Source of the DNA: a virus
IMG/VR virus record: IMGVR_UViG_3300015360_000036
Location: 9,769-73,768 of that record
Strand: one strand, 5' to 3'
Length of the DNA: 64,000 nucleotides
Shown: positions 1,922 through 30,680 of the stretch, in pieces
Layout: every line of letters begins with the position of its first letter
Numbering within the stretch: position 1 is the first letter of the stretch
Position numbers and translations under genes: made by a program
Notes under the pieces: generated by a model
Told to the model about the DNA's origin: nothing
Databases searched by the model: none
What the model saw: the letters and a program-made list of their open reading frames with translations, nothing else

Positions 1922-2290
1922 ATGAAAGACAATTATTCTAAAGGTAGAAAACCATTTAAAAAGGCACTGAAAGGGGGTGATTCGCAAGCCGACGATATTA
2001 TTATCGATGAAGTTTCAAAAAATGAACCAGTACTCGGAGAATATTTAGAAGTAAAAGTTTTCAATAACTTTGAAAAGGCAATACGAGCTTTCAGGGCAGT
2101 AGTTCAAAAAGAGCGTATTTTATCCCTTTATAAGGAAAAGCAGTCATTTGAAAAACCTTCTGATAAGCGCAGAAGGAAGCGTAATGAGATGAAACGAAAG
2201 CGTTTAGAGTTAGAGAGTGATAATGGTTCAGAACCTAAGGTCAAAAAGACTTTCAAAAAGCACTCCTTTAAGGATACTTCTCCAGAATAA
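1922..2290 (+). CDS. rpsU: Ribosomal protein bS21 homolog with N- and C-terminal extensions
   Basis: VKVFNNFEKAIRAFRAVVQKERILSLYKEKQSFEKPSDKRRRK matches the bS21 pattern (E.ALR.F...., YEKPS.KR.RK). Confidence 0.85.
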   Translation: MKDNYSKGRKPFKKALKGGDSQADDIIIDEVSKNEPVLGEYLEVKVFNNFEKAIRAFRAVVQKERILSLYKEKQSFEKPSDKRRRKRNEMKRKRLELESDNGSEPKVKKTFKKHSFKDTSPE

Positions 2291-2301
2291 CTGGAGCCAA
2301 C

Positions 2302-3051
2302 ATGAATCAACAAACCAAGTTTTATAAAAATTCAGCAAGATCGAAAGATCCTACGCCTGAACATAAGCCATACGTTCCTCAATATCAAGTAATGGGTATT
2401 GAGCCAGAACCATATATTAGCCCTTTGGATCAAAATCAAACTCCACACCATACTCCAGTAGTATTACGTGGGGCGCCTAGAGAGCCATTACCTCTTGATA
2501 ACCCAAGGGGTCGTAAGGTTGGTATGAGAAATATGCCTTATGCAGAGACTTCTGTATCTCCTGTTGGAAGAGGTAGGGGTCCAGTTCCTAATGTTGGTAA
2601 TAACATGGAACATACTTGGTCAAGTGTTGATAGTGAAATAATCGATGATGTGTCTGGTTTATCTATTGATCAGACACATCATATGGTTGATAATAATGAT
2701 TTCGTATCTGATGAAGCGTTAGGTGTACAAACCAACGTTCAAACCTCTTCTTTAGGAGGTAAGGTTCGCATAGAGGGTGAAGAAGATAAGGCTTATTTAA
2801 CTGAAAATGATTTAAAGAAGATCTTATCAGATAAGAAAGAAATCACTTCTTTATCTTTATTGAAGGATAATCATTATATGGCTATACTTTTCGATAAAGT
2901 CGTCGCCACAGGACCAATTGATAAGGTTCAAGCAATAGTTTCATCATTAATTTTTGGTGAACATAAAGATTATCAAAACGTATCTATCTCTATAGATGAT
3001 ATAGTAGTCGTTAAGAAGATCAAGCTTAAAGTAGGTGTCTTCTTAGAATAA
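2302..3051 (+). CDS. Hypothetical protein
   Basis: 249-aa ORF with GGAG SD; no recognised motif. Confidence 0.7.
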   Translation: MNQQTKFYKNSARSKDPTPEHKPYVPQYQVMGIEPEPYISPLDQNQTPHHTPVVLRGAPREPLPLDNPRGRKVGMRNMPYAETSVSPVGRGRGPVPNVGNNMEHTWSSVDSEIIDDVSGLSIDQTHHMVDNNDFVSDEALGVQTNVQTSSLGGKVRIEGEEDKAYLTENDLKKILSDKKEITSLSLLKDNHYMAILFDKVVATGPIDKVQAIVSSLIFGEHKDYQNVSISIDDIVVVKKIKLKVGVFLE

Positions 3052-3060
3052 GGGACTACT

Positions 3061-3801
3061 ATGAGTGATGGACAAAGAAAAGTTACTGATGTTATTTTGG
3101 ATTTAGAAGCTAAAGTTAATGCATTATTAACTTCATCTAAAAATCAAGAAATGCTTGTAAAGATAATGTCAAACAAATTGAATGAATTATTACAAGCACA
3201 ATCGGTTCCAAAGCCTGTTGTAGGAAAACCTTTTGTTGAGGCAGTTAATACTACACATCAAAAGGCTATTGAGATTTCATCGGAAACTAAACTTCCAATG
3301 CAAGATCTTCCAAATGGATTTAGAAGAACTTCAAGACCTGAAACTTATTCTGGTGATAATCAATATTTACCAGTAACAGATCAAGGAGTAACCAAATTCC
3401 CTATGCAGTTGCCTAAACAGCCTGAGGCAGAAGTAAGGGTACCTGCGCCAGCTACTACAAAAAAAGAAACACCAACATTCACAGAGAAACCTGTACCTTC
3501 TGAAATTCAAAATAGGGTTGTAAGTAATGCAATTCCTGTTATTCAAAGAATTGTAGATTCAACTGGTAAATCTATATTTTTGGCAGATGTCGAAATCACA
3601 GATGTAGATGGTAAGACACCAACATATAAATCTAGAACAAATGGTACTGGTAAATGGATGGCAACATTAGCGCCTGGGCAGTATAAAGTAGTCATTCGTA
3701 AAAGAGAATCGTTGACAAAAGAGAAGTTAGAGTCCACACAGGAGATTACTGTGACTGGAGCTGTTAGTCCATTTGAACTGCCAATTCTTATTATGAGATA
3801 A
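3061..3801 (+). CDS. Hypothetical protein: N-terminal coiled coil, C-terminal prealbumin/carboxypeptidase-regulatory-like beta domain
   Basis: GKSIFLADVEI..RTNGTGKW...LAPGQYKVVIRK pattern. Confidence 0.55.
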   Translation: MSDGQRKVTDVILDLEAKVNALLTSSKNQEMLVKIMSNKLNELLQAQSVPKPVVGKPFVEAVNTTHQKAIEISSETKLPMQDLPNGFRRTSRPETYSGDNQYLPVTDQGVTKFPMQLPKQPEAEVRVPAPATTKKETPTFTEKPVPSEIQNRVVSNAIPVIQRIVDSTGKSIFLADVEITDVDGKTPTYKSRTNGTGKWMATLAPGQYKVVIRKRESLTKEKLESTQEITVTGAVSPFELPILIMR

Positions 3802-3825
3802 TGTCAATAAAAATACATATATGGC

Positions 3826-5616
3826 ATGACTATTGTAATTAGAAAAAAAATATCTAGTGATAATATAAAAGCTTATGAAATACAAGGTTTTATACACGAT
3901 TATTACAATAATGGATTTATTGCTCAAGAAAATAGAGATACGTACCAAAGAGGTGTTGTACCAAGATCAAAAATAGCTCTCTGGGATGCAAATGATGTTG
4001 TAAAATACTTAAAATCATTTGATGATAATACAAAACAAATGATTTCTAAATTGATTGAAATGACTCAATCAACTGATGTGATAGATCTTAAAAAGTATGT
4101 TGAGTTAGTAAAATTTGCTAAAGAAGTATTCATTAGACATTTTAGTAAATTAACAAATGAAGCAAAATCAATTCTATTTACTGTATTTAATACAGCCTCT
4201 TCAAAATTACAAGTTATGCGTAGTGAATCTAAACCAGATGCTATGATACCTTTAGCTGCGGCAGCCACACTACTTACTTTAACTGTAAATCAATTAAAAT
4301 CTGTAATAGATAAAGTAAATAAATTACCTAATAAGTATTCAGATGAAATTTCAGAATTGGAAGAAGAGTCCAAATATAACACATATGTTGGAATGGAAGA
4401 TCCAATACGGGCTCAAATTAATGAATTGAGTAAGCTTGCAGCTAACATTATTATTGTTAATGAAAATATATCTTCAAATATTGAGGTGAAAATTGATAAG
4501 ATAAAGATAAGTGATTTCAACAAATTAGCTGCATATGCACGTTATATGAGGCAGAATGAAGGTGACGATCCTATTATTGTTCCAGCAACAAATAACACCG
4601 CTAATCCAATATTAGATCAATCAAAAGAGTATTTATCATTGATTATGGATGATGGATTTCATGATTCACAAAATGCTTTAGTTGCTTTAGGACTAATTTA
4701 TGAATTAAGTGGTTCAAAATCAATAATTAATATATTGAAAAAGCCAAATATATCAGATAGAGTAATTGGTGCTATAGCTGAATTAATACAAAAAGGTAAT
4801 GATGTTGATTTGTTTGATCAAATTATATCACAGATTGAATCAATAGAGAAATATGACTTATTTCAATCAATGTTCATAAATGATGTTAATTACGAATTTC
4901 TTCACAATTTAATAGAAAAGAACATTGATAATGTAATATTTATGAATCAATTTGTTAATGGAACATTAAATAGAATTTCCGCAGCAGTAATACTTGATTT
5001 ACTTAGTAAATACCCTGAAAAATTCGCTAATATTGATCTTAATTTGCATAAGGTAATTGGGTACGTGTCAAGACATATTGATGATATAATCTATATTATT
5101 GAATCATTATTAAATAGCGGTAAACCTGAACAATTACTAAAGTACATCAATCAAATGTTAGGTTATTTATCTTACCCTATGTACGCTATAAAAATATTAG
5201 GTAAATATGGAAATATTATTTCCAGCAATGAATCATCAGTAATAGCATTTTTCAAAGATAAAAATGTAACAAAACAGATGGTCAAAGAAATGAATTGGCA
5301 AAATATTATTTCAGTTATGAAGATTGTAAATAAATACCCTAATTTGCAATCTATTTTCACTGGAATAGCTGAAGCAATTGAAGATCAACTAAACGATAGG
5401 GTTTATTCATTATTACTTAAAGCAATTCCATTTACACAAGAATATAAGAGCATATTAGATTCATATAGGGCAAATGTTCTTAAGACCCAAGAAGATGCTA
5501 AAAATTATATTCAGAAAATGGTAGAGCCGCAAACAGCTAATTTGCCAATAAATAATGAACAGCCATCTAAACAAAGTGTAGCAAATATGATTTTTGCATT
5601 AAGATCATCTAGATAA
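3826..5616 (+). CDS. Hypothetical alpha-helical protein, AT-rich accessory gene
   Basis: 596-aa I/N/K-rich ORF; no recognised motif. Confidence 0.7.
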   Translation: MTIVIRKKISSDNIKAYEIQGFIHDYYNNGFIAQENRDTYQRGVVPRSKIALWDANDVVKYLKSFDDNTKQMISKLIEMTQSTDVIDLKKYVELVKFAKEVFIRHFSKLTNEAKSILFTVFNTASSKLQVMRSESKPDAMIPLAAAATLLTLTVNQLKSVIDKVNKLPNKYSDEISELEEESKYNTYVGMEDPIRAQINELSKLAANIIIVNENISSNIEVKIDKIKISDFNKLAAYARYMRQNEGDDPIIVPATNNTANPILDQSKEYLSLIMDDGFHDSQNALVALGLIYELSGSKSIINILKKPNISDRVIGAIAELIQKGNDVDLFDQIISQIESIEKYDLFQSMFINDVNYEFLHNLIEKNIDNVIFMNQFVNGTLNRISAAVILDLLSKYPEKFANIDLNLHKVIGYVSRHIDDIIYIIESLLNSGKPEQLLKYINQMLGYLSYPMYAIKILGKYGNIISSNESSVIAFFKDKNVTKQMVKEMNWQNIISVMKIVNKYPNLQSIFTGIAEAIEDQLNDRVYSLLLKAIPFTQEYKSILDSYRANVLKTQEDAKNYIQKMVEPQTANLPINNEQPSKQSVANMIFALRSSR

Positions 5617-5652
5617 TTTGATTAAATTATCAGATTCTTACTTTGATATATA

Positions 5653-6372
5653 ATGAGTATGTCAACCAAAAATTTAAAATTCCAAGTAATAGTCAGTGAT
5701 CCCGCCTGGTCATTTTCAGATTCACTTTCCATGTCTGACGTAGCTAGAGGTGCTTCCGCTAACTATAAGACCATGACGCTTTCAGATATTAAAGCGCTTC
5801 CTGTAAAAGAGGTTGCTGACCCTACCGGAGCCGTGCTAGCTCTCTGGGTTCCGTCTTCTCTTTTGCAGGAAGGCTTAGATACTATTAAAGCCTGGGGATT
5901 TACTCACAAACAAACATATATTTGGGTAAAGACTAAGAAGACACCATTATCTAATTTTTTATCAGTAGTTAAGAAGCAAGTAAAGCAACTTAATAAAGCC
6001 AAAGGGACAGATATCCCAGATGGCATGATAAATACTATTTTGACTACATGTAAGAATTTTAAAATTAAAGATACATTGGCATTTGGAATGGGTCGTCTAT
6101 TTAGGCAAACGCATGAAATTTGTTTAATCGGTACTAATAAAAATGGTATTTATAAATTACTTAAGAACAAGTCACAACGTTCAGTATCATTTGCTGAAAA
6201 TCTTAAGCATTCAGCAAAGCCAGAAGATTTACAAGATTCACTAGAACAGATGTTTCCAGGTACAAATAAGTTAGAAATGTTTGCTCGAAGAGAACGTACT
6301 GATTGGACTTGTTTAGGAAATGAAGTTGGTTTGAAGGAAGATATTCGCGATTCAATCGCAAAATTAATTTAA
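5653..6372 (+). CDS. MT-A70 family N6-adenine methyltransferase
   Basis: VIVSDPAW (DPPW-like), Y.TM...DIKALPV, LALWV, WGF...YIWVK, HSAKP, LEMFAR. Confidence 0.9.
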   Translation: MSMSTKNLKFQVIVSDPAWSFSDSLSMSDVARGASANYKTMTLSDIKALPVKEVADPTGAVLALWVPSSLLQEGLDTIKAWGFTHKQTYIWVKTKKTPLSNFLSVVKKQVKQLNKAKGTDIPDGMINTILTTCKNFKIKDTLAFGMGRLFRQTHEICLIGTNKNGIYKLLKNKSQRSVSFAENLKHSAKPEDLQDSLEQMFPGTNKLEMFARRERTDWTCLGNEVGLKEDIRDSIAKLI

Positions 6373-6417
6373 TACGCGGTCCATTGACCGTTAATTTACA
6401 GGGATTACGGTGATGCT

Positions 6418-6936
6418 ATGTCCAAAAAAACACTGCTACTGAGCGCAAGCTATGAGGTTATTTCTTTCATTCCAGAGAGAAAAGCTTTCAAGTTATTTTT
6501 TAACGATAAAGACAAGGTGGAAGTCATCTCAAGCTGGGATGATGAAATCACTTGGTCTTCCGGTAAAGTTAAGCACCCATCAATCCTGAGACTAAAGAAT
6601 TACGTAAGAAGGAATTACTATAACTCAAACTTCAGCCGTAAGGCTTTGGTCAAAAGAGATAAGAGTACTTGCCAATTCTGTGCAAAGAAGCTTGTAGCAT
6701 CACAGATTACGATAGATCATGTTCTTCCAAGAGCGCAGGGAGGAGTTACATCTTTCACTAACTGTGTTGTATCTTGTCAGATTTGCAATAATAAAAAAGC
6801 AGATCGTACTCCAGAACAAGCTAAGATGACTTTGTTGAAGAAACCAACACATCCTTCATTTTCATCCAACATATATGTTGCTGATCCTCAAGAGTATTGG
6901 CATAATGATTGGGATGATTTCTTAGGCAATGTTTAA
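6418..6936 (+). CDS. HNH endonuclease (McrA/HNH_5-like)
   Basis: RDKSTCQFC...TIDHVLPRAQGG..SFTNCVVSCQICNNKK. Confidence 0.92.
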   Translation: MSKKTLLLSASYEVISFIPERKAFKLFFNDKDKVEVISSWDDEITWSSGKVKHPSILRLKNYVRRNYYNSNFSRKALVKRDKSTCQFCAKKLVASQITIDHVLPRAQGGVTSFTNCVVSCQICNNKKADRTPEQAKMTLLKKPTHPSFSSNIYVADPQEYWHNDWDDFLGNV

Positions 6937-6939
6937 TAT

Positions 6940-6973
6940 AAAAGACCATGTATTTAACGTACATGGTCTTTTT
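6940..6973 (+). terminator. Intrinsic terminator, probably bidirectional
   Basis: Perfect 13-bp inverted repeat AAAAGACCATGTA/TACATGGTCTTTT directly after the HNH stop. Confidence 0.75.
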
Positions 6974-7028
6974 GTCATGCGAATAATACAGAATACTATA
7001 TACCCTGAACTGATATATAGGAAGAACC

Positions 7029-7283
7029 ATGACAAACACGGTAAGCTGCAACTGTATAGTATGTGCTCAAGAGTTTCAACCAGAGGAACTTCAAAGCTTA
7101 GCATCGTCTAAGATTAATGCCACACGCTTTAAGATCTGCCAAGCTTGCTTGGATAAGTGTGATCCTGAAGACGACTATAATCAAGCTCGTGATATCGTCA
7201 ATTCATATTTGAATTTTGCATATGCTAAAAGCATGTACAATGAGGCTATGGATATTTTAGATTCTAGAAAGAAATTATCATAA
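7029..7283 (+). CDS. Small Zn-finger protein
   Basis: CIVC...CQAC. Confidence 0.65.
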   Translation: MTNTVSCNCIVCAQEFQPEELQSLASSKINATRFKICQACLDKCDPEDDYNQARDIVNSYLNFAYAKSMYNEAMDILDSRKKLS

Positions 7284-7442
7284 TATTTCTATAATAATTA
7301 CTCTATCCTCTTCATCTAAATAATCGTCTTTAGCTTTCTTTATTAATGGTGTAGGATCAACCTCTATATACAGAGGAATTTGCTCAAAATTGTTTTTCTT
7401 TCTATCCTTGCGCTCATGAATAAACGGGAGAAATGGTTCCAT
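7278..7442 (-). CDS. Small protein (54 aa), not in ORF track
   Basis: GGAGG SD then ATG; MEPFLPFIHERKDRKKNNFEQIPLYIEVDPTPLIKKAKDDYLDEEDRVIIIEIL-TGA; fills an intergenic gap. Confidence 0.7.
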   Translation of the reverse strand: MEPFLPFIHERKDRKKNNFEQIPLYIEVDPTPLIKKAKDDYLDEEDRVIIIEIL

Positions 7443-7493
7443 TTTGCCTCCACCAATTACTAATATACGATTTTAGTAATAAAGTAATAAATA

Positions 7494-7691
7494 ATGCTAT
7501 GTACTAGTTGCAGTAAACTTGCTCAATTACACACTAATAAGGTATGTTCACGCTGTAAAGGCAGTGTTTTTATTAGTATTTCTGTTATTTGTGAAAAATG
7601 TTCAAGCAAAACAAAACAATGCTCTGCATGTCTTAAAAATATATCTTCACCATCTAGTAAGTCAGGTGGATGTGGACAATGCGGTAAATGA
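7494..7691 (+). CDS. Small Cys-rich (multi-CxxC) protein
   Basis: Five CxxC pairs in 65 aa. Confidence 0.65.
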   Translation: MLCTSCSKLAQLHTNKVCSRCKGSVFISISVICEKCSSKTKQCSACLKNISSPSSKSGGCGQCGK

Positions 7692-7704
7692 TATACAGGA
7701 CCAT

Positions 7705-8232
7705 ATGATTATTACAAACAACGAAAGTGCTCTAAGAGTTACATGTGAAGAAGTACTACCTGAAGAGGTAGGTAGTCTTATCGAAATTTTAGAATTAGAA
7801 TTAGATAATAGCAATAGGCTCGGCAGGGGCGGAATTGGATTGGCTGGTCCACAAATCGGAATTGCTAAGAAAATAGCTATTGTAAGGTTAAACCAAAACA
7901 TGAATATCAATCTAATTAATTGTAAGATTGAGAAAGGCTATGACCCTACGATTTTCAGGGAGGAAGGTTGTTTATCTTTTCCTGGTAGAGTAGAAGATAC
8001 TATAAGATTTCAGGAGGTATATATTACTGGTAACCTAACTTATCCTCATAGTTTTGTTGCAACTGGTTTATTAGCTGTTGTATGTCAGCATGAAATTGAT
8101 CATCTAAATAGTATTATATTTACTGATAGAATAAACCCAAAGCCGATAATGATTAAAAAATCAAAAGTTGGTCCTAATGACCCTTGTTTGTGCGGTTCAA
8201 ACAAAAAATATAAGAAATGTTGTGCTAAATGA
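7705..8232 (+). CDS. def: Peptide deformylase with C-terminal SEC-C motif
   Basis: GIGLAGPQIG, EGCLSFP, QHEIDHL; tail VGPNDPCLCGSNKKYKKCC; start reassigned to ATG 7705 after AGGA. Confidence 0.93.
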   Translation: MIITNNESALRVTCEEVLPEEVGSLIEILELELDNSNRLGRGGIGLAGPQIGIAKKIAIVRLNQNMNINLINCKIEKGYDPTIFREEGCLSFPGRVEDTIRFQEVYITGNLTYPHSFVATGLLAVVCQHEIDHLNSIIFTDRINPKPIMIKKSKVGPNDPCLCGSNKKYKKCCAK

Positions 8233-8402
8233 ATAATGAACTTGATGTGCAGGTAGCAGAGATATTAGTCAGACTAATTGCTCTTGAAAATCTCCTAATA
8301 AAGAAAAATCTAATTCTTGGAGAGGAAATTGTCAAAGAGATGAAAGGTATAACAGACTCTGTGGTCGCTGCTTTAGCTTCTAAAGAATCAGAATCTAAAT
8401 GA
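8229..8402 (+). CDS. Small hypothetical protein (57 aa), not in ORF track
   Basis: ATGA overlaps at both ends; MNNELDVQVAEILVRLIALENLLIKKNLI... Confidence 0.65.
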   Translation: MNNELDVQVAEILVRLIALENLLIKKNLILGEEIVKEMKGITDSVVAALASKESESK

Positions 8403-8728
8403 TTTTCATAACTAAAGAAGAAGATTTGGTATACAACTCGAAATTAAGTTCCATTTATTTCTACTCATCATGGTTGCCATTTCATAAGAAGTTTTTAATC
8501 ATGATAGACAAAGTAAAAGAAAAACACTCTTCTTTAGAATTTTTCGCTATAGACGTTGATCAGTTCAGAGGATTATGCTCAAGATATGGAGTACTTTCTG
8601 TTCCAACTGTTATAGTAATGTATGAAGGTAAAGAACAAACTAGGATAGAAGGGCTGGTAATGACTAGTGCTTTTATAAAAGTTTTCGCTGATATATGTAA
8701 TAAGTATTCTGCAAATTTGGAGAAATAA
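8399..8728 (+). CDS. Thioredoxin-fold protein lacking CxxC
   Basis: IYFYSSWLPFH (WCxxC position), FFAIDVD, YGVLSVPT, RIEG. Confidence 0.75.
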   Translation: MIFITKEEDLVYNSKLSSIYFYSSWLPFHKKFLIMIDKVKEKHSSLEFFAIDVDQFRGLCSRYGVLSVPTVIVMYEGKEQTRIEGLVMTSAFIKVFADICNKYSANLEK

Positions 8729-9013
8729 ATGGTAAAAAAGCAAGAAAAAGTAGTAGTAGCAGCACCAGTAGTAGCTAAAGTAGAGTTAACTGAAGCTCAA
8801 AAGATTTGGAACGAAGTTAAAGGTTTAGAAATTGAAATGTTTGCATTGCCAAATCAAAAAGTACATCAATATGTAAAGCAAGTTTCTATCGATCCAAGTA
8901 GACTATTTTTAATCGCTAATGCTACATCAGTATTACCTGCATTAGAGCTAGTTGTTGATAAGAAGTTTACTATTGAAAAAATAGATAGATTTCTAGTTCT
9001 TACAAGGAAATAA
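8729..9013 (+). CDS. Hypothetical protein
   Basis: ORF with GGAG SD. Confidence 0.65.
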   Translation: MVKKQEKVVVAAPVVAKVELTEAQKIWNEVKGLEIEMFALPNQKVHQYVKQVSIDPSRLFLIANATSVLPALELVVDKKFTIEKIDRFLVLTRK

Positions 9014-9014
9014 G

Positions 9015-9500: not shown

Positions 9501-9503
9501 GTT
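9475..9503 (+). promoter_or_regulatory. Sigma70-type promoter
   Basis: TTGACA-17 bp-TAAGTT. Confidence 0.5.
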
Positions 9504-9507
9504 AGTC

Positions 9508-10184: not shown

Positions 10185-10188
10185 TTAT

Positions 10189-16787: not shown

Positions 16788-16815
16788 TTGACAGAAAAAA
16801 TATAGTTATTATAAT
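16788..16815 (+). promoter_or_regulatory. Consensus sigma70 promoter upstream of trigger factor
   Basis: TTGACA-16 bp-TATAAT. Confidence 0.7.
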
Positions 16816-16849: not shown

Positions 16850-18100
16850 ATGCAAATCGAAGTTAAAGAAATTGAGCCATGCAAACTATCAGTTCATTAT
16901 GAAGCAAATGCTGAGCAGATTCTAAATAAAAGAGCGGAGGTGTTCCAAGCCTTTAAGAAAGCACCTGTACCGGGATTCAGACCAGGTAAAGTAGCTCCAG
17001 AAGCTATTAAAATGCATTACAAGAATCAGATTGAGGAAGCTCTTAAAAGGGGTTTAGCAGAAGATGCTTACCATAATACGCTTTTCGAGAAAAAGCTAAG
17101 AGCACACGGTGCTCCAAGGTTTACCACATTATCACTAATTGGTGGTAAGTTTAGTTGTGATTTTGATCTACACACTAAGCCAGATTTTGAGCTAGCTCCT
17201 TATCATAAGCTAAATGTACCAAAACCACACAGTCCTTTATCACAAAGTGATATAGCCGAAAAAATGCTTCAAGAAGTTAGAGTTCGTCTTGGAGAGCACA
17301 CCCCTTATTCAGATACTGATTTCGTTCAAATGAATGATAATGTCATTGTTGATTATGAGGGTTCAGTAGATGGTGTTAAAGTTGAGGCATTAACCGCTAC
17401 TGGTGAGATGCTTAATGTTGGAACCAGCCAATTACCAGCATTTGATGAAAATTTATTGGGTATGACTGTAGGCGAAACTAGGGAATTTTCCCTGGTAGCT
17501 CCAGCTAATTCTTTACCATCATTAGCTGGAAAGCTTGTTACATTTAAAGTAACGCTTACTATTGGTTCAAAGAACACTCCAGCAGCTTTGGATGATAGTT
17601 TAGCTGTAAAACTTGGTAAAAAAGATTACAATGAATTACGTGAATTTGTGACAGCCAATGCTGGCGCTCAAGTAATCAATACAGGAAAATCTGCATTAAA
17701 TGGTTCTATCACCGCAAAACTAGTAGAAGATAATAAAATTGATGTGCCAAACTGGCTTGCTCTTTCTGAAGCTCAGTATTTAGCTCATCATTCAAAAATG
17801 GATTGGAATACTATTTCTGATGCAGATAAGGATAAGCTTTTGATAATGGCAGAGAAAAATGTCAAATTATCATTGGTGTTAGATAAGATTAGAGAGACTG
17901 AGCCTGATGCCCAGCTAAGTGATAATGAAGTACTTAATATAATTAAGCACAATATGTCTAAAACTAAATTACAATCATCATCATTTGATGATGCGATTAA
18001 AGAGATGACAAGAACAGGTTATCTTCAAGTTTTATTCTCAAGAATAAAAGATGAATATACTCTAGACTACATCGTAAAATCAGCAATCATAACGGAATAA
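16850..18100 (+). CDS. tig: Trigger factor (ribosome-associated chaperone/PPIase)
   Basis: MQIEVKEIEPC, VPGFRPGKV signature, FKBP domain (VIVDYEGSVDG, FDENLLGM..GE), C-terminal LVLDKI...E. Confidence 0.9.
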   Translation: MQIEVKEIEPCKLSVHYEANAEQILNKRAEVFQAFKKAPVPGFRPGKVAPEAIKMHYKNQIEEALKRGLAEDAYHNTLFEKKLRAHGAPRFTTLSLIGGKFSCDFDLHTKPDFELAPYHKLNVPKPHSPLSQSDIAEKMLQEVRVRLGEHTPYSDTDFVQMNDNVIVDYEGSVDGVKVEALTATGEMLNVGTSQLPAFDENLLGMTVGETREFSLVAPANSLPSLAGKLVTFKVTLTIGSKNTPAALDDSLAVKLGKKDYNELREFVTANAGAQVINTGKSALNGSITAKLVEDNKIDVPNWLALSEAQYLAHHSKMDWNTISDADKDKLLIMAEKNVKLSLVLDKIRETEPDAQLSDNEVLNIIKHNMSKTKLQSSSFDDAIKEMTRTGYLQVLFSRIKDEYTLDYIVKSAIITE

Positions 18101-19455: not shown

Positions 19456-19480
19456 ACAATACTAACCCTAAGGACATAAC

Positions 19481-23020: not shown

Positions 23021-23025
23021 TATAT

Positions 23026-23095
23026 ATGATATCAACTGCTAATAGAATTAGTCTAGAAAATAGTTGATATCATCAAAATGATAGATTTGATATCA
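23026..23095. repeat. Three TGATATCA palindromic boxes; two form a 12-bp inverted repeat
   Basis: TGATATCA at 23027, 23065 and 23088; ATGATATCAACT (23026-37) / AGTTGATATCAT (23062-73). Confidence 0.75.
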
Positions 23096-23123
23096 GATGT
23101 ATATGCATAAAGAGAGATAAATC

Positions 23124-23963
23124 ATGAAGCTTAGAGAATGGGCTGAAAAAACTGGTGTAAAGTACTTAACTGCTTATAGGTGGTTTAAGGCTGGTACACT
23201 TCCAGTTAAATCTTATCAAACTGAATCTGGGACAATCATAGTAGATGACCCAGAGTTGTCGGAGCAGCAAATGGCAAGTAATGCAAATAGTATACAAAAT
23301 GATGTTATGTCTATCTTTTTGAAAAAGATGGTAGAGTTCAGTAAAATTAATGCATCGGTAGAAGACTTTGCCGCATACATTATTTCAAATTTCGTTTTGA
23401 AACTGCCCTCTACACCTGAAACGGGACCAAAATACTCTAGGAACAAACCTAAAGCAGAAGAGGTCCAGAAGTATTTTCAGCAATTCCTTAAAAAAGGTGA
23501 TAAACCAGTACCACATATTGCAGTAGGTGATATCGATACAATTGATGATTTGGTAGCAAAAGCAGATACGTTATCAACTAAAGAGTTGGTAAGTGAGATC
23601 TCTAAAATTGGTGAAATTAAAAATGATGCACCTGATGTAGCAGAGCTTCAAAAAATAGTTGATGCATTTAAAGGTTTACAAATAACTAAAGTAAAAACTT
23701 ATGACAAGGTTTACGGCGGGGTAATCGCTAGAAGTATACACGATTCAACTCCACAAACCTATACCGACTTCTCAGATGATGAAGCCGCTGTAAGCCTTGG
23801 TCAAGAATTATCGGAACCAGAACCAATCTTAGTAAGATCGGTTTCAGCCGTAGGCGCAACGGGCGCATTCAAGCCCACAAAGAAAGAATTAGAATCAGCC
23901 TCTAAAGCAATAAAATCTGCTGGCGCCAATAAGAAGACCATCAAGTCATCAAGGAAGAAATAA
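23124..23963 (+). CDS. Protein with IS607-TnpA/MerR-type N-terminal HTH
   Basis: MKLREWAEKTGVKYLTAYRWFKAGTLPVKSYQTESGTIIV; no serine-recombinase YARVS motif. Confidence 0.7.
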   Translation: MKLREWAEKTGVKYLTAYRWFKAGTLPVKSYQTESGTIIVDDPELSEQQMASNANSIQNDVMSIFLKKMVEFSKINASVEDFAAYIISNFVLKLPSTPETGPKYSRNKPKAEEVQKYFQQFLKKGDKPVPHIAVGDIDTIDDLVAKADTLSTKELVSEISKIGEIKNDAPDVAELQKIVDAFKGLQITKVKTYDKVYGGVIARSIHDSTPQTYTDFSDDEAAVSLGQELSEPEPILVRSVSAVGATGAFKPTKKELESASKAIKSAGANKKTIKSSRKK

Positions 23964-24601
23964 TGAAAATTCTAAATAAAACACATCTTGTAAAAGTATT
24001 GGCTTATTTCCCAGAGGTACAAGAAAAGATAAATAAGACAACTATTGCTGGCGCGGCATTTGTAACTACAAATTTATCAAAAGTATTAAAAGCAGTTGTA
24101 GTACTTAATGGTCTTGATCCTGCTCGAAGCCAAAGAGATAGATTATTCGAAAGTATGAGTTTATGTTTCGCAACAGTGCATGATGGTGATTATGATAAAA
24201 ATTATAACCCTAATTTCTGGAGTAATAAAAAATTTCAAGAAGCAAAAGTTGTTAATCAAGAATTGACAGCTAAACAATTTGTTAGTGCAACTGATTTATC
24301 AGATTTAACAGACCCACCAGCATTACCTGTATCTGAAGAAGTTTCAGAACAATTATTATTGTTTACTGATGCAGTAGATGTTATAGAGCAATCAGAGTTA
24401 AAGGTAGCTATTGGGGTTAATGCTGGTACTTTGGTTGAAGATAAGTTAATGAGAAATCTTGAAGAATTAATAAAAACTACAGATGATCCACACTTTAAAG
24501 ATCAATTGAATCGTCAATATACTCATCAGGAAAATGGATTAAATGCTCCAACAAGAAATTTTGCTGAAATTGCTCGTGTTCGTAGAACATCCTTAGCTTA
24601 A
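23963..24601 (+). CDS. Hypothetical protein
   Basis: Coupled ORF. Confidence 0.65.
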   Translation: MKILNKTHLVKVLAYFPEVQEKINKTTIAGAAFVTTNLSKVLKAVVVLNGLDPARSQRDRLFESMSLCFATVHDGDYDKNYNPNFWSNKKFQEAKVVNQELTAKQFVSATDLSDLTDPPALPVSEEVSEQLLLFTDAVDVIEQSELKVAIGVNAGTLVEDKLMRNLEELIKTTDDPHFKDQLNRQYTHQENGLNAPTRNFAEIARVRRTSLA

Positions 24602-24617
24602 TATAAAGGAAATCAAT

Positions 24618-25451
24618 ATGAAATGTATGTCTTGTGAAGCATCAATTAATCCAAAATGGAAACATGCTATAGATAATAACACCTGTCCTTGCTGCGGTCT
24701 TTTCATCATGGAAGAGGAATTGAAGGAATTATTATTGTCATTAGGTGAAACCATAAATGATCTAAGTAAATATCAAGAGCAAGTAGATGATTGGTTACTA
24801 TCAAACCATAACTATATTAAAACTGATTCACCCAATCTTGTAAATTATATTCCTCAAGATATTATGGATCAAGTAAAAGAAGACGCTAAAGAAGCGGCTA
24901 TGAATGCTATTAAAGTTATAAAAAATAAAGATTTTGCTGAAAGAAAAGCTTCAGGCGGGAAATACACTGTTAAGGTAGAGACTGAGAATGGTGAGCAAGA
25001 TGTTGAAGTTGAAAAAATCCAAGATGAAGATACAACAAATGACTTCTTCAAAAGAGCAGAAGCAGTAAAACCAAATATTGATGGATTTAAAGATCCAGCA
25101 GATAAGACAAAGAAGTTAAAAAATCTAGTCCAACAAATCAAGAAAAATGGAACTGGCGGAATGGCTGGTGGTGGAAGCGCTATGTCAGAATATGCTGATC
25201 CAGAAGCTGTAGCTGAAATGGAAGGCTTCATTAGTGGTGGTGGAGAGATTAGCTCTGCATTATCATCTGATGGTGGTGACGATGACGCTATTCCATCCAT
25301 TGTATTATCAATGGCAAATAAAGCTAGAGGTAATGGAAATACAAGTGAAGCCAATGCTAGGGACTTACAAAAGCTAGAAGCTTTGCAAAGTAGAACTGCT
25401 TCAGCTAGAAGTAATAGTTTGAGCGGCAAAGGAGCATTTTCTAGATCATGA
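24618..25451 (+). CDS. Hypothetical protein with N-terminal Zn ribbon
   Basis: CMSC...CPCCG. Confidence 0.65.
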   Translation: MKCMSCEASINPKWKHAIDNNTCPCCGLFIMEEELKELLLSLGETINDLSKYQEQVDDWLLSNHNYIKTDSPNLVNYIPQDIMDQVKEDAKEAAMNAIKVIKNKDFAERKASGGKYTVKVETENGEQDVEVEKIQDEDTTNDFFKRAEAVKPNIDGFKDPADKTKKLKNLVQQIKKNGTGGMAGGGSAMSEYADPEAVAEMEGFISGGGEISSALSSDGGDDDAIPSIVLSMANKARGNGNTSEANARDLQKLEALQSRTASARSNSLSGKGAFSRS

Positions 25452-25753
25452 GTATGAGAATAATTGACAACAAAAAAATAGATTTAACGGATGATGAGTG
25501 GACAATGTACGAAAATATTGTCAAGTCATATACCACTGCGACGAACAAGGGCGAGGATCTATTTATCGATTTATTTGAAACTGGACCAGATGGAATTATT
25601 GTTTATCTGAAACCACCATCTAAGTTTAGAACTAGTTTCGAAGTGTTCTTGTATCTAATGAGCATTATGCAGCACCAACATCTTCGGCAAATGTATAAGA
25701 AGGTTGATGATGTTTGTGCGCAAATGAAACAAAAAATTGATAGTATAAAATAA
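25448..25753 (+). CDS. Hypothetical protein
   Basis: ATGA-coupled ORF. Confidence 0.65.
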   Translation: MSMRIIDNKKIDLTDDEWTMYENIVKSYTTATNKGEDLFIDLFETGPDGIIVYLKPPSKFRTSFEVFLYLMSIMQHQHLRQMYKKVDDVCAQMKQKIDSIK

Positions 25754-25806
25754 CATCATTTGTCGAGAAAAAGTTCGAAACATTACATATTTAAGGGAAG
25801 TCGATT

Positions 25807-26325
25807 ATGGAAAAGAAAGTTGTAACGCTTGCCGATATAGTTGGTGACGACTTAGAAGAAGAATTCTCTAAGTTCGATCTAACTGAAATTCAAGCAGTAC
25901 TTATAAGATTATCAGATGTTGATGCAATTGATATTGCACATGCCGAATTACTACAGCAACAAGCATTAAGAGGAGCAGATATTCTATGTGGGTATCTTGG
26001 TAAAATAGTAAAAACAGTTGGTTACCTTGAGGCTAGAGTTAATAGCACAAAGAATAAAGCATCTTTGGATTATCAAGCTCCTGAAGGAAAAACAACTGCT
26101 GATATGAAAAAATGGGCTGGAGAGTCTTCATCAGTCGTTGAAGACATTCAAATTAAGCTTGCAAAAGCCAAAGGCAGTAAATTAGTTTTAGAGAAAAAGT
26201 ATGATATTTTAATAAAGAGTCATCATCATTATAAAGATATTGCCGCAGGCTTACGTAAGACAATCCTTGGATATAGTCCTGGTGCTGGTGTCCCCAGCGA
26301 AAAAGTGCCGGAGGGTTATGAGTGA
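25807..26325 (+). CDS. Helical protein, possible UvsY-like recombination mediator
   Basis: All-helical, about 170 aa, immediately upstream of recA; weak UvsY-like pattern. Confidence 0.4.
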   Translation: MEKKVVTLADIVGDDLEEEFSKFDLTEIQAVLIRLSDVDAIDIAHAELLQQQALRGADILCGYLGKIVKTVGYLEARVNSTKNKASLDYQAPEGKTTADMKKWAGESSSVVEDIQIKLAKAKGSKLVLEKKYDILIKSHHHYKDIAAGLRKTILGYSPGAGVPSEKVPEGYE

Positions 26326-26435
26326 TTAAAAGAATCATAACTCCTGGCTAGATAATTAAATATAGTCGAATATGAAAAAATTGCCCATTAGATATAGCAG
26401 ATATGCAAACACGGGCGAAACAAATATAGGGAGTT

Positions 26436-27632
26436 ATGATGTCAAGTAAATTAGAATCATTTTTCAAAAGCTTTGCAGAGGCAGATGCACAATTAGATTT
26501 CAAAATGGCACATGAGACCGTAGGTGAGAAAGTCCCTGTAATTTCTACAGGGTCACTTGCTCTAGACGATGTACTATCATGTGGCGGTCTACCAAAAGGT
26601 AGAATAATTCAATACTACGGACCACCAGGCAGCGGTAAGACTCTTATGGCAATGATTGCTATGTTAGAGGCACAACAGCAAGATCCAAACTCACAACAAG
26701 TCTTCATTGATGCTGAGGGAACATTTGATCCTACTTGGGCAGAGATTCTTGGATTGGATACATCAAGAGTTATTTTAGTTGAAGGTGATACCGCAGTTAA
26801 TGGTCGTAAATGTTTCGAAATGCTTTTAGGTGAACCAAAGGAAGATGCAAAGACACATATCTTAAAAGGTAAGTCAAAAGAAGGCTTATTAGATAAGATT
26901 ATGAATAAAGACTTCAATATCAACATGATTGTATTAGATTCTTTGGGATCAATTATCCCACCCGGAGAAGATACATCAAAAGTTGGTAAGATGAACATGT
27001 CATTATTAGCTAGATTTTTAACAACCACTTTCAGAAAATTGTCTTTAGAGGTAAATAAGGCAGATGTAGTATTCATTGTTATCAATCATAAACGCGATAA
27101 CATGGACCCATACGGAGCAGATCATACATTCTCTGGTGGTAATACATATGCACATACACTTAGCGCCAACGTATACTTCGAAGCTATTCAGAGGAAAGAC
27201 GCTCGTATCGTAGACGAAAAAGAAAATAAGGTTGGTCATCCATTAAAAGGAACTATTGAAAAATCTAAGTTTGGACCTTGGCCAAGAGCCTGTGAGTTTA
27301 AAGTAAACTTTTCAATTGGAGTTATCGATAAGCATGAGGAAATTGCTCAACTAGCTTTAGATTATAATGTAGTAGTTAAAACAAGTAGCGTTTCACATGA
27401 ATATGGTGAAAGGAAGTGGGTAGGTTTCCCTAAGTATTCAGAGGCTATTAAAGATGACCCAATTTTAGCTAGTGAATTGATTTTAAAAGTCAATGAAGCT
27501 CGCGAAGCTAAGTTAGAGACTAAGAGGGCTGAACAAGCAGCTAAGAGAAAGAAATCTATGGCTGATGCCCCTATAAAAGCAGATGATAATGATTCAGATG
27601 AATCTGTTAAGAAAGTAAAGAAGGTTAAGTAA
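26436..27632 (+). CDS. recA: RecA/UvsX recombinase
   Basis: ISTGSLALD, GGLPKGRI, GPPGSGKT, FIDAEG, IVLDS, IVINH. Confidence 0.95.
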   Translation: MMSSKLESFFKSFAEADAQLDFKMAHETVGEKVPVISTGSLALDDVLSCGGLPKGRIIQYYGPPGSGKTLMAMIAMLEAQQQDPNSQQVFIDAEGTFDPTWAEILGLDTSRVILVEGDTAVNGRKCFEMLLGEPKEDAKTHILKGKSKEGLLDKIMNKDFNINMIVLDSLGSIIPPGEDTSKVGKMNMSLLARFLTTTFRKLSLEVNKADVVFIVINHKRDNMDPYGADHTFSGGNTYAHTLSANVYFEAIQRKDARIVDEKENKVGHPLKGTIEKSKFGPWPRACEFKVNFSIGVIDKHEEIAQLALDYNVVVKTSSVSHEYGERKWVGFPKYSEAIKDDPILASELILKVNEAREAKLETKRAEQAAKRKKSMADAPIKADDNDSDESVKKVKKVK

Positions 27633-27952
27633 TGTCTAATGATGTTGGAGTAGGAATAACTACAAACGTACCTAATGGTTCAAGGATATCACCAAAACCT
27701 AATTACTTAATCAGAGTACAAGATACTGTGGGTAAAGCCAAGGTAGTTAGAAATTTTGTAACTTTAGATAAACCGGAACTTTTGGTCGGATTTGTTTCGG
27801 TTAGAGGATTTTTTACAGAATTGTCGGAGGAAGAAATATCAAGCAAAATTACCGAGGTCTTGACAACGACGAAAAAAGACTTATTAATAGAAGTGATGTT
27901 CGCATCACATGCAATATTGAGTATGAGAAGCCTAGTTTATAAGGCAAAATAA
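27632..27952 (+). CDS. Hypothetical protein
   Basis: Coupled ORF. Confidence 0.6.
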   Translation: MSNDVGVGITTNVPNGSRISPKPNYLIRVQDTVGKAKVVRNFVTLDKPELLVGFVSVRGFFTELSEEEISSKITEVLTTTKKDLLIEVMFASHAILSMRSLVYKAK

Positions 27953-27983
27953 CCGAATAAATTGATAAAGAAAGACTAATAAA

Positions 27984-28283
27984 ATGACATCTAATAGTAA
28001 TATAAATAACACTGACAATACCGTTCTAAATGGAGCATTGTTGGTTATATCAAAAGCAAAAGATGGTATCTGGAACGGCACGATGACTGACTTGAACTCA
28101 GCAATGAGAAAAGTAGTTATTGGTAAGAAAGGTGATATAAGTGGAATGCCACGCTCACCCAGCTCTTTGAGAGTTGTTCTGAATAGAATCATAAATAGAT
28201 TACGAAGTAGGGGTGTTAGTGTTAAGTTTGGTAGAACAACAGATGCAACACGTACCCGTCACGTAGAATTTGTAATGAGATAA
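27984..28283 (+). CDS. Small basic protein, probable winged-helix DNA-binding domain
   Basis: WNGTMTDL..PRSPSSLRVVLNR...LRSRGVSVKFGR. Confidence 0.5.
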   Translation: MTSNSNINNTDNTVLNGALLVISKAKDGIWNGTMTDLNSAMRKVVIGKKGDISGMPRSPSSLRVVLNRIINRLRSRGVSVKFGRTTDATRTRHVEFVMR

Positions 28284-28363
28284 TCATTGCAGAGTTACAG
28301 TCCGATTATGTTAAATAGAACGTACATTTGTACAATAGATAAAACAACAGTAGGAGATAAAAT

Positions 28364-29086
28364 ATGACAACATTTGGTGAAGTTTCTTGGGAAGACGAAA
28401 TTGTTGGTTCTGATAAAAAACAATCAAATAATAAAGATATTTGGTTAAGATTAGATGAGGGCTCAAATGAGCTAAGACTAGTCACTCAGCCACATCAGTA
28501 CTTAGTTCATAAGTACAAGAAGGACGAGAACGATAAGAGAGATTTCGGTAGAAAAGTATCATGTTCAGCCATTCATGGTAGCTGCGTACTTTGTGATGCC
28601 GGAGATAAAGCCAAGCCACGTTGGTTGCTAGGTGTAATTAGCCGTAAGACTGGATCTTACAAGATTCTAGATATTTCATTTGCAGTTTTCTCACAAGTTA
28701 GAAAACTTGCAAGAAACACTCAACGTTGGGGTGACCCAACCAAGTATGACTTGGATATCGTAGTAGATAAGAATGGTGGAGCAGCTGGTTACTACTCAGT
28801 TCAACCAATTTCAAAGGAGCCACTATCGGCTGCTGATCAACTCATCAAAGATGATGCTGATCTAGAAGAGTTGAAGGCGAAGGTAACACCTCCAACTCCA
28901 GATGTTGTTCAGAAGATCATTGCTAAAATCAATGGTGCTGACACTTCCGGTGGCGCTCCTGTAAAGAAAGCAACTGTTGCTACGGCTGCTCATGTTGCGG
29001 CAAAATCAGCACCTAAGGTTGCACCAGTAAGTATGTCTGATGATGAAGAGATTGATGAGACCTTCCCAGCATACGATGCTAAGTAA
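28364..29086 (+). CDS. Single-stranded DNA-binding protein (gp32-like)
   Basis: WLRLDEGSNELRLV, Zn ligands H..C..C..C, YDLDI, acidic C-terminal tail. Confidence 0.7.
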   Translation: MTTFGEVSWEDEIVGSDKKQSNNKDIWLRLDEGSNELRLVTQPHQYLVHKYKKDENDKRDFGRKVSCSAIHGSCVLCDAGDKAKPRWLLGVISRKTGSYKILDISFAVFSQVRKLARNTQRWGDPTKYDLDIVVDKNGGAAGYYSVQPISKEPLSAADQLIKDDADLEELKAKVTPPTPDVVQKIIAKINGADTSGGAPVKKATVATAAHVAAKSAPKVAPVSMSDDEEIDETFPAYDAK

Positions 29087-29110
29087 GCATCAAGAAAATA
29101 AGTGATTGAT

Positions 29111-29146
29111 AAAGAGGGACCATGGCGTAAGCCTCGGTCCCTTTTC
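29111..29146 (+). terminator. Intrinsic terminator after ssb
   Basis: AGGGACC..GGC-GTAA-GCC..GGTCCCT followed by TTTT. Confidence 0.75.
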
Positions 29147-29178
29147 TAGTTTCTGCTTATCATGTTATATTCCAGTGT

Positions 29179-29766
29179 ATGATTAAAAAAATTTTAGGAT
29201 TTGATGCAAGTTCCACTACTATTGGCTGGGCTTGTCTTGAAATCAATGATATTGATAATTCAATAGTACATAAAAATTCTGGTTTTATTAAGCCTCCTAA
29301 AAAGGGTAATATAATCGAACGAATATACAAAACAAGAGCTGAAGTTCAGAAGGTAATTGATTTGTATAAGCCTGATCATATAGGAATAGAAGAAATTATA
29401 CAATTTATGCAGGGAAAAAGTACAGCAAAAACAATTATTATGTTAACAACGTTTAATCGCATGGTTGGATTAGTGTCATATGATTCTTTGGGTGTAACAC
29501 CGGAGTTTTTCAATGTTATGTCGATTAGACATGGATTAAAATTAAATAAAGATTTGCCAAAAAAAGAAGATATGCCAGATCTTGTTTCACAGCATTTAGG
29601 CATTACATTCCCTTATCAGTATAAAAAGACTGGTAAACCAATTGAAGAAAATTATGATAGAGCAGACGGAATTGCAGTTGCTCTATATTACGCATTAGTA
29701 TTGACTGGTAAAGTAAAACGAAAAATAAAGAAACCAAAAGATAAGAAGAGTAAGGTGACGAAGTGA
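29179..29766 (+). CDS. ruvC: RuvC-like Holliday junction resolvase
   Basis: ILGFDASSTTIGW, PDHIGIEE, DRADGIAVA. Confidence 0.85.
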   Translation: MIKKILGFDASSTTIGWACLEINDIDNSIVHKNSGFIKPPKKGNIIERIYKTRAEVQKVIDLYKPDHIGIEEIIQFMQGKSTAKTIIMLTTFNRMVGLVSYDSLGVTPEFFNVMSIRHGLKLNKDLPKKEDMPDLVSQHLGITFPYQYKKTGKPIEENYDRADGIAVALYYALVLTGKVKRKIKKPKDKKSKVTK

Positions 29767-30680
29767 ATTTACAAGAAGCGTATAAAACTCTGGATTTGAC
29801 ACCGGGCACGTCGAAGGATGATGCCAAGAAGAAATATCGGGAGCTTACTAAAAAGTACCATCCTGATATAAATAAGGAGCCCGGAGCCGAGGATAAGTTT
29901 AAAAAAATAAATGAAGCTTATTCATGTGTTCAAGCTGGAAAAGGTAATGAGCCACAAAGACAATCAAGCAATCCATTTGGCAGGCAAACGTATCATAACC
30001 AAGAAAATATTCAACTTAATGTAACAATATCATTTGCTGAATCTATATTAGGCTGTGAAAGACATTTTAAATTCAATAGGAAAGCAAAATGTAACTTATG
30101 TAATGGTAAAGGTGAAATTAATTTGCATAATGGGTGTGATAAATGTGAAGGTAAAGGCTTAATTGTAACCAGACAAGGTAATGCTATCTATAGTAGGACT
30201 TGTGATAAATGCTATGGTAAAACTGACACTCAATCTTGTAATGCATGTAACGCTGATGGTAGTGTTGATACCGATACTTCTATAAAGGTAACAATTCCAG
30301 GTGGAGTACAAAGCGGCAATATACTTCAATTAGCGGGTATGGGACATTTTGTTGGTTCTTTTATGCATATGGATCAACGAACTGATGCTCATGTTCATAT
30401 TTTAGTTACACCAGAACCAGGGCTTTCTCTATCTGGAGCTACTGTTGTATGTGATTTGCAGTTAAGTTTGATAGATGCCATTAAAGGTTGTAAGAGAACA
30501 GTAAAAACTGTTTTAGGTGATAAGGAAGTTGAAATTCCGGCACAATCAAGGAATAAAGATATAGTGGTAATACCAAACATGGGTGTAAACCGTGTTGGAG
30601 ATCAAAATGTAGTCTTGGATGTTAGATATTCTGAGCAGATTCTAAATATGATAGATAAACTAATGGATGGAGTAGAGTAA
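29763..30680 (+). CDS. dnaJ: DnaJ chaperone (type I)
   Basis: J-domain YHPD...FKKINEAY, four CxxCxGxG-like repeats, C-terminal substrate domain. Confidence 0.93.
   Translation: MNLQEAYKTLDLTPGTSKDDAKKKYRELTKKYHPDINKEPGAEDKFKKINEAYSCVQAGKGNEPQRQSSNPFGRQTYHNQENIQLNVTISFAESILGCERHFKFNRKAKCNLCNGKGEINLHNGCDKCEGKGLIVTRQGNAIYSRTCDKCYGKTDTQSCNACNADGSVDTDTSIKVTIPGGVQSGNILQLAGMGHFVGSFMHMDQRTDAHVHILVTPEPGLSLSGATVVCDLQLSLIDAIKGCKRTVKTVLGDKEVEIPAQSRNKDIVVIPNMGVNRVGDQNVVLDVRYSEQILNMIDKLMDGVE

Follow-up and report, generated by a model that had tools for sequence, protein, structure and literature searches.

The stretch of DNA analysed here, called the window, comprises 64,000 nucleotides and corresponds to bases 9769-73768 of the 73,768-bp IMG/VR viral record IMGVR_UViG_3300015360_000036. 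It encodes a homologue of the ribosomal protein bS21 (rpsU), a peptide deformylase (PDF; def) with a SEC-C tail, a full-length trigger factor (tig) and a DnaJ (dnaJ) (Table 1). A sequence-only reading of the window had proposed that these four genes, together with a thioredoxin fold, an AAA+ ATPase and an M41-like peptidase, form a phage-encoded set for nascent-chain biogenesis. Each of the four reading frames is intact, passes Pfam gathering scores and carries the motifs of its family, and related viral records contain these genes in an unchanged order. In this report, we describe the four proteins, their distribution and origin, and the roles that this kit may play during infection.

Table 1. 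Positions of the genes discussed, counted from the first base of the window
Feature	Position	Strand	Evidence or remark
bS21 homologue, 122 amino acids (aa)	1922-2290	+	PF01165, 46.9 bits (cut-off 27), residues 44-94
PDF with SEC-C tail, 175 aa	7705-8232 (ATG start)	+	PF01327, 90.2 bits; PF02810, 30 bits (cut-off 20.4)
Trigger factor, 416 aa	16850-18100	+	Trigger_N 74 bits, FKBP_C 23 bits, Trigger_C 27 bits, all above Pfam cut-offs
DnaJ, 305 aa, GTG start	29763-30680	+	PF00226, 57 bits; PF01556, 78 bits; PF00684, 25.6 bits (below cut-off 32.7)
AAA+ ATPase, classic clade, 443 aa, TTG start	566-1897	+	PF00004, 71 bits
Thioredoxin-fold protein, 109 aa	8399-8728	+	PF00085, 36.2 bits
Stand-alone metallopeptidase-like protein, 221 aa	18712-19377	+	FtsH-type HEAGH; PF01434, 26 bits (below cut-off 29.9)
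MT-A70 methylase	5653-6372		
HNH endonuclease	6418-6936		
Nucleotidyltransferase-like protein, 255 aa	42376-43143		PolyA_pol/CCA-type nucleotidyltransferase head domain; inside head-packaging block
Terminase large subunit	45371-47233	+	Downstream of replication/recombination block
Portal, 988 aa	47305-50271	+	Downstream of replication/recombination block
GIY-YIG-type homing endonuclease	62456-63505		

Four genes with probable roles in nascent-chain handling

The trigger factor has the domain order that defines the family: Trigger_N, an FKBP-type peptidyl-prolyl isomerase (PPIase) domain and Trigger_C. Its true start lies at 16850 and not at 16814, because the orthologues are 414-416 aa long. 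The ribosome-binding loop of the N-domain reads GFRPGKVAP, with one extra residue before the proline compared with the GFRxGxxP signature, and G42, F43, R44 and G46 are invariant in 17 orthologues. The AlphaFold2 (AF2) model has a predicted local distance difference test score (pLDDT) of 85. The top Foldseek matches of this model are the E. coli trigger factor structures 1w26 and 2vrh, with E values from 1e-23 to 5e-22 over 428 columns at ~20% identity. In a large protein database, the best 120 matches to the trigger factor are 415-435 aa long and, apart from the window's own, 60-80% identical.

The earlier suggestion that trigger factor is rare in viruses is borne out. A fold search of BFVD with the model returned no trigger-factor-like viral structure. 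The GenBank matches labelled as phage are all less than 30% identical, and the one annotated case that was checked proved to be bacterial tig-clpP-clpX DNA. Bacillus phage G is not among the GenBank trigger-factor matches. No discussion of a phage or viral trigger factor was found in the literature, where coverage of subscription journals was limited.

The PDF contains the catalytic motifs GIGLAGPQ, EGCLS and HEIDH, which place it among the deformylases and are all kept in 18 orthologues. Its C-terminal end reads CLCGSNKKYKKCC and fits the SEC-C pattern, CxC-x(8-9)-C-C/H after a flexible linker. The CxC...CC tail is kept across the 18 orthologues, with CS replacing CC in one. In the orthologues, a Pro- and Lys-rich linker of about 10-20 residues leads into GPND-x-C-x-C-GSGKKYKKCC. 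The AF2 model places the end of the core at the HExxH helix (residues 121-134), which is followed by a four-residue helix (139-142). Next comes an unstructured stretch (143-160), where pLDDT is for the most part below 60 and falls to its minimum at 148-152. Confidence rises again in the knuckle (161-175), to a pLDDT of about 80. The long C-terminal alpha-helix of E. coli-like type 1B enzymes is not present in this model.

E. coli PDF docks on the ribosome through its C-terminal helix. Since this helix is missing from the phage protein and a SecA-like tail layout is present, we infer that the zinc knuckle may replace the docking helix as a tether. The metal-binding domain of SecA binds SecB and ribosomes (10.1101/613315, PMC6620043). 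PDB entries 6j45 and 7d80 each contain chains of E. coli trigger factor and of PDF.

The SEC-C tail is widespread among the relatives of the phage PDF. Nearly all of the best 120 PDF matches in the large protein database combine PF01327 with PF02810, and 8 of 10 readable PDFs from more divergent lineages carry the tail. Among the best 80 of at least 579 PDF loci in GTDB, 77 have no tail. Of the three tailed ones, one is on a phage-like contig of 383 kb and the other two are on short contigs of 7.3 kb and 5.6 kb; the 7.3-kb contig has a guanine-cytosine (GC) content of 29% and carries ClpP and a Metallophos gene, and its metagenome-assembled genome (MAG) has two other PDFs. Some 128 GenBank phage records hold a PDF, with identities to the window PDF of at most 36%. 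None of the 25 best of these 128 matches reaches the SEC-C tail, the query coverage ending by residue 159. The PDF-SEC-C fusion appears, on these sequence surveys, to be confined to this phage group. Another type of extension is seen in Saccharibacteria and Patescibacteria MAGs, where the PDF reading frame runs on into a long C-terminal extension. Its start presumably resembles the N-terminus of a formyltransferase, and a PDF-Fmt fusion is possible.

In the bS21 homologue, the PF01165 core sequence is extended by about 40 aa at the N-terminus and by about 25 aa at the C-terminus. The core is kept in 18 orthologues, and the extensions vary. Phage bS21 and phage PDF had been named in the sequence-only reading as already described, which is correct: Al-Shayeb et al. 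2020 (PMC7162821) reported both, including N-terminal extensions of bS21.

The DnaJ consists of a J domain with an HPD motif, a region with four Cys pairs and a C-terminal domain of the client-binding type. HPD and all eight cysteines are invariant in 21 orthologues. Hsp70 and GroEL were not found in the large relatives searched, so the phage DnaJ would have to use the Hsp70 of the host. Binding of host DnaK has been described for a phage J-domain protein (PMC3486835).

Recurrence and origin in a huge-phage lineage

Relatives of the window were collected from IMG/VR with the trigger factor. A single-protein scan gave 21 loci with trigger factors 46-64% identical, on contigs of up to 452 kb. 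An alignment-based scan gave 46 contigs with trigger factors 46-65% identical, on contigs of up to 481 kb, and more divergent lineages add more. Of the 33 related records searched, all contain DnaJ, 30 contain bS21 and 29 contain PDF; the records with a gene missing are three fragments shorter than 23 kb and one record rated 62% complete. The 20 closer records, two of which are rated 100% complete, one of them with direct terminal repeats, contain DnaJ in every case and bS21 and PDF in 17 cases each, with misses in the three short fragments only. The 13 deeper-branch records, on contigs of 338-459 kb, contain bS21 (13/13), DnaJ (13/13), PDF (12/13) and a Peptidase_M24 gene (7/13). All four kit genes are present in each of the seven records that are 95-100% complete (338-459 kb), and six of these seven also carry the methionine aminopeptidase-like Peptidase_M24 gene. 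Wherever coordinates were compared, bS21 comes first, then PDF, trigger factor and DnaJ, and the neighbouring genes are syntenic. A survey of this kind had been suggested with the original proposal, and its outcome is that the kit recurs with its order kept. With this arrangement repeated among related viral records, the co-occurrence of the four genes is not due to chance.

The large close relatives carry additional genes of interest. IF1 is found in four of four, two ClpP genes in four of four and IF3 in one of four; an EF-Tu-type GTPase was absent from all of them except for one 74-aa fragment. The presence of IF1 and of the methionine aminopeptidase-like gene in near-complete relatives strengthens the nascent-chain theme. 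Two adjacent ClpP genes also lie on the contig of the window itself, at bases 1937-3114, upstream of the window.

The ratio of nonsynonymous to synonymous substitution (dN/dS) was estimated pairwise with the NG86 method, and medians were taken over pairs with dS below 2.5. These rough values are 0.18 for PDF, 0.19 for trigger factor, 0.20 for bS21 and 0.28 for DnaJ, and they indicate that the four genes are under purifying selection.

Several features identify the source of the window as a phage with a very large genome. CheckV rates the 73.8-kb record as 17% complete, which puts the full genome at roughly 430 kb. Nearly every long open reading frame (ORF) lies on the + strand, the GC content is uniform at about 29-40% in 2-kb windows, and GC skew is steadily positive. 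No tRNA was found in the window. The best cultured match of the portal is that of Bacillus phage G, at 32% identity. The window is best described as part of a Judaphage-like huge phage of about 430-480 kb, with Bacillus phage G as its nearest, distant, cultured relative.

The placement near the Judaphages, a group in which membership is judged by common gene content and close homology to the published genomes, is based on the trigger factor, the gene order and published trees rather than on a whole-genome or terminase tree. The trigger factors of the window and of BM_PHAGE_CIR_35_55 (437,772 bp) share 62% identity, and the N-terminus of the latter protein fits the consensus of the phage clade. 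In published trees, BM_PHAGE_CIR_35_55 groups with near-identical GD_PHAGE genomes labelled as Judaphage (PMC7162821). An IMG contig from sample 3300010403, with a trigger factor 65% identical to that of the window, sits within the Judaphage clade in the tree of Al-Shayeb et al. 2020. The window is a new, more divergent member of this Judaphage-like clade. The main text of Al-Shayeb et al. 2020 (PMC7162821) does not mention trigger factor, DnaJ, methionine aminopeptidase or a SEC-C tail. In the supplementary GenBank files of that study, 'Trigger factor' is an automatic best-hit label in at least 11 huge-phage genomes. The file for BM_PHAGE_CIR_35_55 (PMC7162821) lists methionine aminopeptidase, DnaJ, 'Trigger factor' and PDF in the same order. 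The trigger factor of this clade is thus visible in published annotation files and undiscussed. DnaJ and J-proteins of phages have been published (PMC12619734, PMC3486835).

The origin of the trigger factor was examined on a wider scale. When 1.84 billion cluster representatives were searched with HMMER, 155 clusters reached E <=1e-30, and the identity of these clusters falls smoothly to about 27%. In the tree, 41 representatives sampled from the 150 best clusters form one clade with the IMG/VR phage trigger factors (Shimodaira-Hasegawa-like approximate likelihood ratio test, SH-aLRT, 100). The stem of this clade is about 1 substitution per site long, and the clade is separate from the 41 named bacterial trigger factors in the tree, of which 15 belong to Bacteroidota. 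An alignment-based scan of GTDB species representatives gave no match to the conserved peptides of the clade. No close bacterial donor was thus seen among these representatives, which is not proof that there is none. The tree topology is best read as an old, single acquisition that has been kept by a broad huge-phage lineage.

One large relative is found in a bacterial bin. Contig JAIXLO010000160.1 (383,427 bp), binned with a Chitinophagales MAG, carries a PDF-SEC-C gene at 60% identity and, about 8 kb from it, a phage-type trigger factor at 43% identity. A separate trigger factor of the Bacteroidota type, encoded on a different contig of this MAG, falls outside the phage clade in the tree. 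JAIXLO010000160.1 is likely a mis-binned huge phage and at most a weak lead to a host. The other leads are weak Shine-Dalgarno use and the taxonomic profile in Al-Shayeb et al. 2020 (PMC7162821), which leans weakly to Proteobacteria. These leads conflict, so no host is named. The match of bS21 to solved ribosomes, at about 25 bits, is too weak to point to one.

Neighbouring genes and translation signals

The region 1922-30680, in which the four genes lie, is a replication/recombination block, as profile searches of the window ORFs revealed. It contains the end of a topoisomerase gene and genes for an MT-A70 methylase, an HNH endonuclease, a primase zinc-ribbon protein, SbcD/SbcC-like proteins, a dNMP kinase, a PD-(D/E)XK nuclease, DNA Pol III alpha, RecA and a RuvC-like protein. 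The terminase and portal genes follow downstream, and a large head protein with a prohead-protease-like stretch is encoded on the same strand in the terminase-portal region.

The three further proteins proposed for the set fared differently. The AAA+ ATPase is real. Its best solved match is B. subtilis YjoB (7w42, 125 bits), followed by D2 domains of VCP/Cdc48. It is possibly an unfoldase or chaperone, and its membership of the kit is uncertain. For the thioredoxin fold, the fold itself was confirmed and the redox site was not: SWLPFH stands at the active-site position, CxxC is lacking, and the protein does not qualify as a thioredoxin. A role as redox partner was rejected for this reason. The ORF is present in 16 of 21 related loci, and its conservation without CxxC points to a protein that is probably non-redox and structural or chaperone-like. 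It is probably not part of the kit, and nothing links it to translation. The M41-like protein has the HEAGH motif, as proposed, and falls short of the Pfam cut-off, so it is not assigned to FtsH/M41; it is kept in 21 of 21 related loci. A split FtsH made of the AAA+ and M41-like genes was considered and rejected, since the two genes are 17 kb apart, the peptidase scores below threshold and the AAA+ protein is most like YjoB and VCP.

Some neighbours vary among relatives. The MT-A70 methylase is missing from 21 of 21 related loci, and the HNH endonuclease is found in 10 of 21 at about 82% identity. Together with the GIY-YIG endonuclease, they seem to be mobile or variable elements inserted into a backbone that is otherwise syntenic. 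The portal matches that of Bacillus phage G in two pieces, which jointly span residues 25-912. Its middle, from about residue 300 to 708, has no Pfam match and resembles mycobacteriophage ORFs annotated as 'nucleotidyltransferase/HNH endonuclease', at 24% identity. A domain inserted in frame, or an intein-like element, may account for this part.

Translation signals were examined in about 20 nt upstream of 67 + strand starts. The ribosome-binding signal is short, AGG-centred and located at -9 to -11. ATAGG is about 12-fold enriched upstream of gene starts, and GGAG or GAGG occurs upstream of 15 of the 67 starts, against 5% of random positions.

Possible function and comparison with known systems

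We read the kit as a group of working replacements or supplements for host nascent-chain factors in a long infection, with a probability of about 0.6. The genes are present with intact motifs and predicted folds, they are conserved under purifying selection, and their origin is in a phage. The kit would sustain phage protein output, with very large virion proteins to be made in great number, while the host supply is shut off or degraded. In the sequence of events that we infer, for every binding and activity step alike, bS21 with its basic extensions would enter the host 30S subunit and act in initiation; near-complete relatives encode IF1 as well. PDF would then strip the N-formyl group, held near the tunnel exit by the flexible linker and the SecA-type zinc knuckle. 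The methionine aminopeptidase-like enzyme of near-complete relatives would trim the methionine. The trigger factor would dock via its GFRxGK loop and shield nascent chains. Finally, DnaJ would pass clients to host DnaK through its HPD motif, a handover proposed because the phage has no Hsp70. That the phage in this way remodels host ribosomes, as the sequence-only reading put it, is pure conjecture.

Several observations weigh against working replacements. The four genes are scattered through the 29-kb replication/recombination block and do not form an operon, and neither the methionine aminopeptidase-like gene nor IF1 lies on this fragment. The proline of the GFRxGxxP signature is shifted here and is not conserved in the phage clade. 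The PPIase pocket is only partly kept in a profile alignment with the E. coli protein: F198 and F233 are retained, F168 is replaced by Y, F177 by V, F185 by M and Y221 by G, and I195 falls in a gap. DnaJ has no normal glycine/phenylalanine (G/F) region and a linker of about 20 residues in its place, and two of its four CxxCxGxG repeats lack the full GxG. As dS is near saturation, the dN/dS values are approximate.

A more ambitious claim would be that a deep huge-phage lineage has virus-specific PDF, methionine aminopeptidase and trigger factor, the three factors that each nascent chain encounters at the tunnel exit, that its PDF is re-tethered by the zinc knuckle to the ribosome or to a partner chaperone, and that these proteins together with bS21 and IF1 make distinct 'phage ribosomes'. 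We regard this as possible and doubtful. The kit could instead serve a selective take-over, in which bS21, IF1 and the exit-site factors displace those of the host and bias ribosomes towards phage mRNAs or nascent chains. The bS21 extensions are lineage-specific; in the proposal of Al-Shayeb et al. 2020 (PMC7162821), extensions of this kind bind RNA and give phage mRNAs an advantage. The short AGG-centred motif, with GGAG or GAGG at 15 of 67 starts, would suit a take-over. So would the strong divergence of trigger factor and PDF, whose best solved homologues score 66 and 62 bits, since it allows an altered specificity. However, the sequence holds no sign that phage messages are told apart from those of the host. 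In bacteria, almost every nascent chain is a substrate of trigger factor and PDF, so a selective action would require some new mechanism, and we consider a take-over unlikely.

Rather improbable, in our view, is a role in counter-defence, in which the phage copies replace or mimic monitored host factors, or sequester DnaK or SecB, so that abortive infection is not triggered. Phage sensing by bNACHT25 needs host DnaJ (PMC12169576, as cited in PMC12619734), and a J-domain protein of a T4-like phage manipulates DnaK and sigma-32 (PMC3486835). The SecA-type zinc knuckle is a known SecB-binding module, and the same genomes carry the ClpP pair, the AAA+ ATPase and the FtsH-like peptidase. Still, PDF keeps its catalytic motifs, and trigger factor and DnaJ keep their full client-binding architecture, under purifying selection across a deep lineage. 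This fits working enzymes and chaperones better than decoys, and no defence or anti-defence genes were identified beside the kit genes. The genes could finally be bacterial housekeeping genes on host DNA, owing to a chimeric assembly or a mis-called provirus. Two related records are labelled 'provirus' in IMG/VR, the 383-kb relative is binned with a Chitinophagales MAG, two other MAGs contain short relatives, and the GenBank 'phage' match that was checked for trigger factor was bacterial contamination. The contig is nevertheless not a host chimera: it is a viral record with a terminase-portal block on the same strand, even GC and syntenic near-complete viral relatives. The kit genes lie between phage replication genes and the terminase-portal block, on one strand and with even composition, and the bacterial tig-clpP-clpX context is missing. 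Among thousands of database matches, no contig is longer than about 485 kb, and one relative with direct terminal repeats is rated 100% complete. The Chitinophagales MAG has a separate Bacteroidota-type trigger factor, and the phage clade stands apart from all bacterial phyla sampled. A host origin of the DNA is extremely improbable.

The preferred reading of the kit, as working replacements or supplements, bears on how far viral control of translation extends. Published discussion of huge-phage translation genes ends at initiation, elongation and termination factors plus PDF. A conserved viral trigger factor, a zinc-knuckle PDF and a methionine aminopeptidase-like enzyme would extend this control to co-translational folding and N-terminal processing. 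The kit is a natural experiment on ribosome sharing among exit-site factors and a source of divergent trigger-factor and PDF variants for biochemistry. It also gives a testable reason for the investment in chaperones by very large phages with very large virion proteins. The zinc-knuckle leash, if true, would be a new way to anchor a processing enzyme at the ribosome or on a partner chaperone.

The genome to which the window belongs is of the same kind as those of the huge phages of Al-Shayeb et al., uncultured, 400-480 kb in size and with a DNA Pol III alpha gene. Its trigger factor is similar to bacterial Tig (E. coli 1w26, 2vrh) in the three-domain layout, the GFRxGK loop and structural similarity over the full length. 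However, it is ~20-25% identical and forms a separate deep clade, its signature proline is shifted or lost, and its FKBP pocket is partly replaced. It is also encoded by a virus, without the tig-clpP-clpX context. The PDF resembles those of cyanophages and vibriophages (S-SSM7 PDF, PDB 3uwa; Frank et al. 2013, PMC3660681) in being phage-encoded, with intact motifs and a shortened C-terminus. Unlike them, it has a linker and a SecA-type zinc knuckle after the catalytic core. This tail shares with the C-terminal tail of SecA, and with metal-binding domain (MBD) proteins such as YecA, a disordered linker and a (G/R)PND-x-C-x-C-GS-x-KKYKKC-C/H knuckle. In contrast to SecA, the predicted knuckle is located on a deformylase and not on a translocation ATPase. 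RB43 Rki (PMC3486835) and moraphage DnaJ/DnaK (PMC12619734) are like the phage DnaJ described here in that a phage-encoded J protein with HPD needs an Hsp70. Some moraphages encode DnaK (PMC12619734), whereas the relatives searched here do not. Instead of a bare J domain, the DnaJ of the window is a near-complete, class-A-like protein with a zinc finger and a C-terminal domain.

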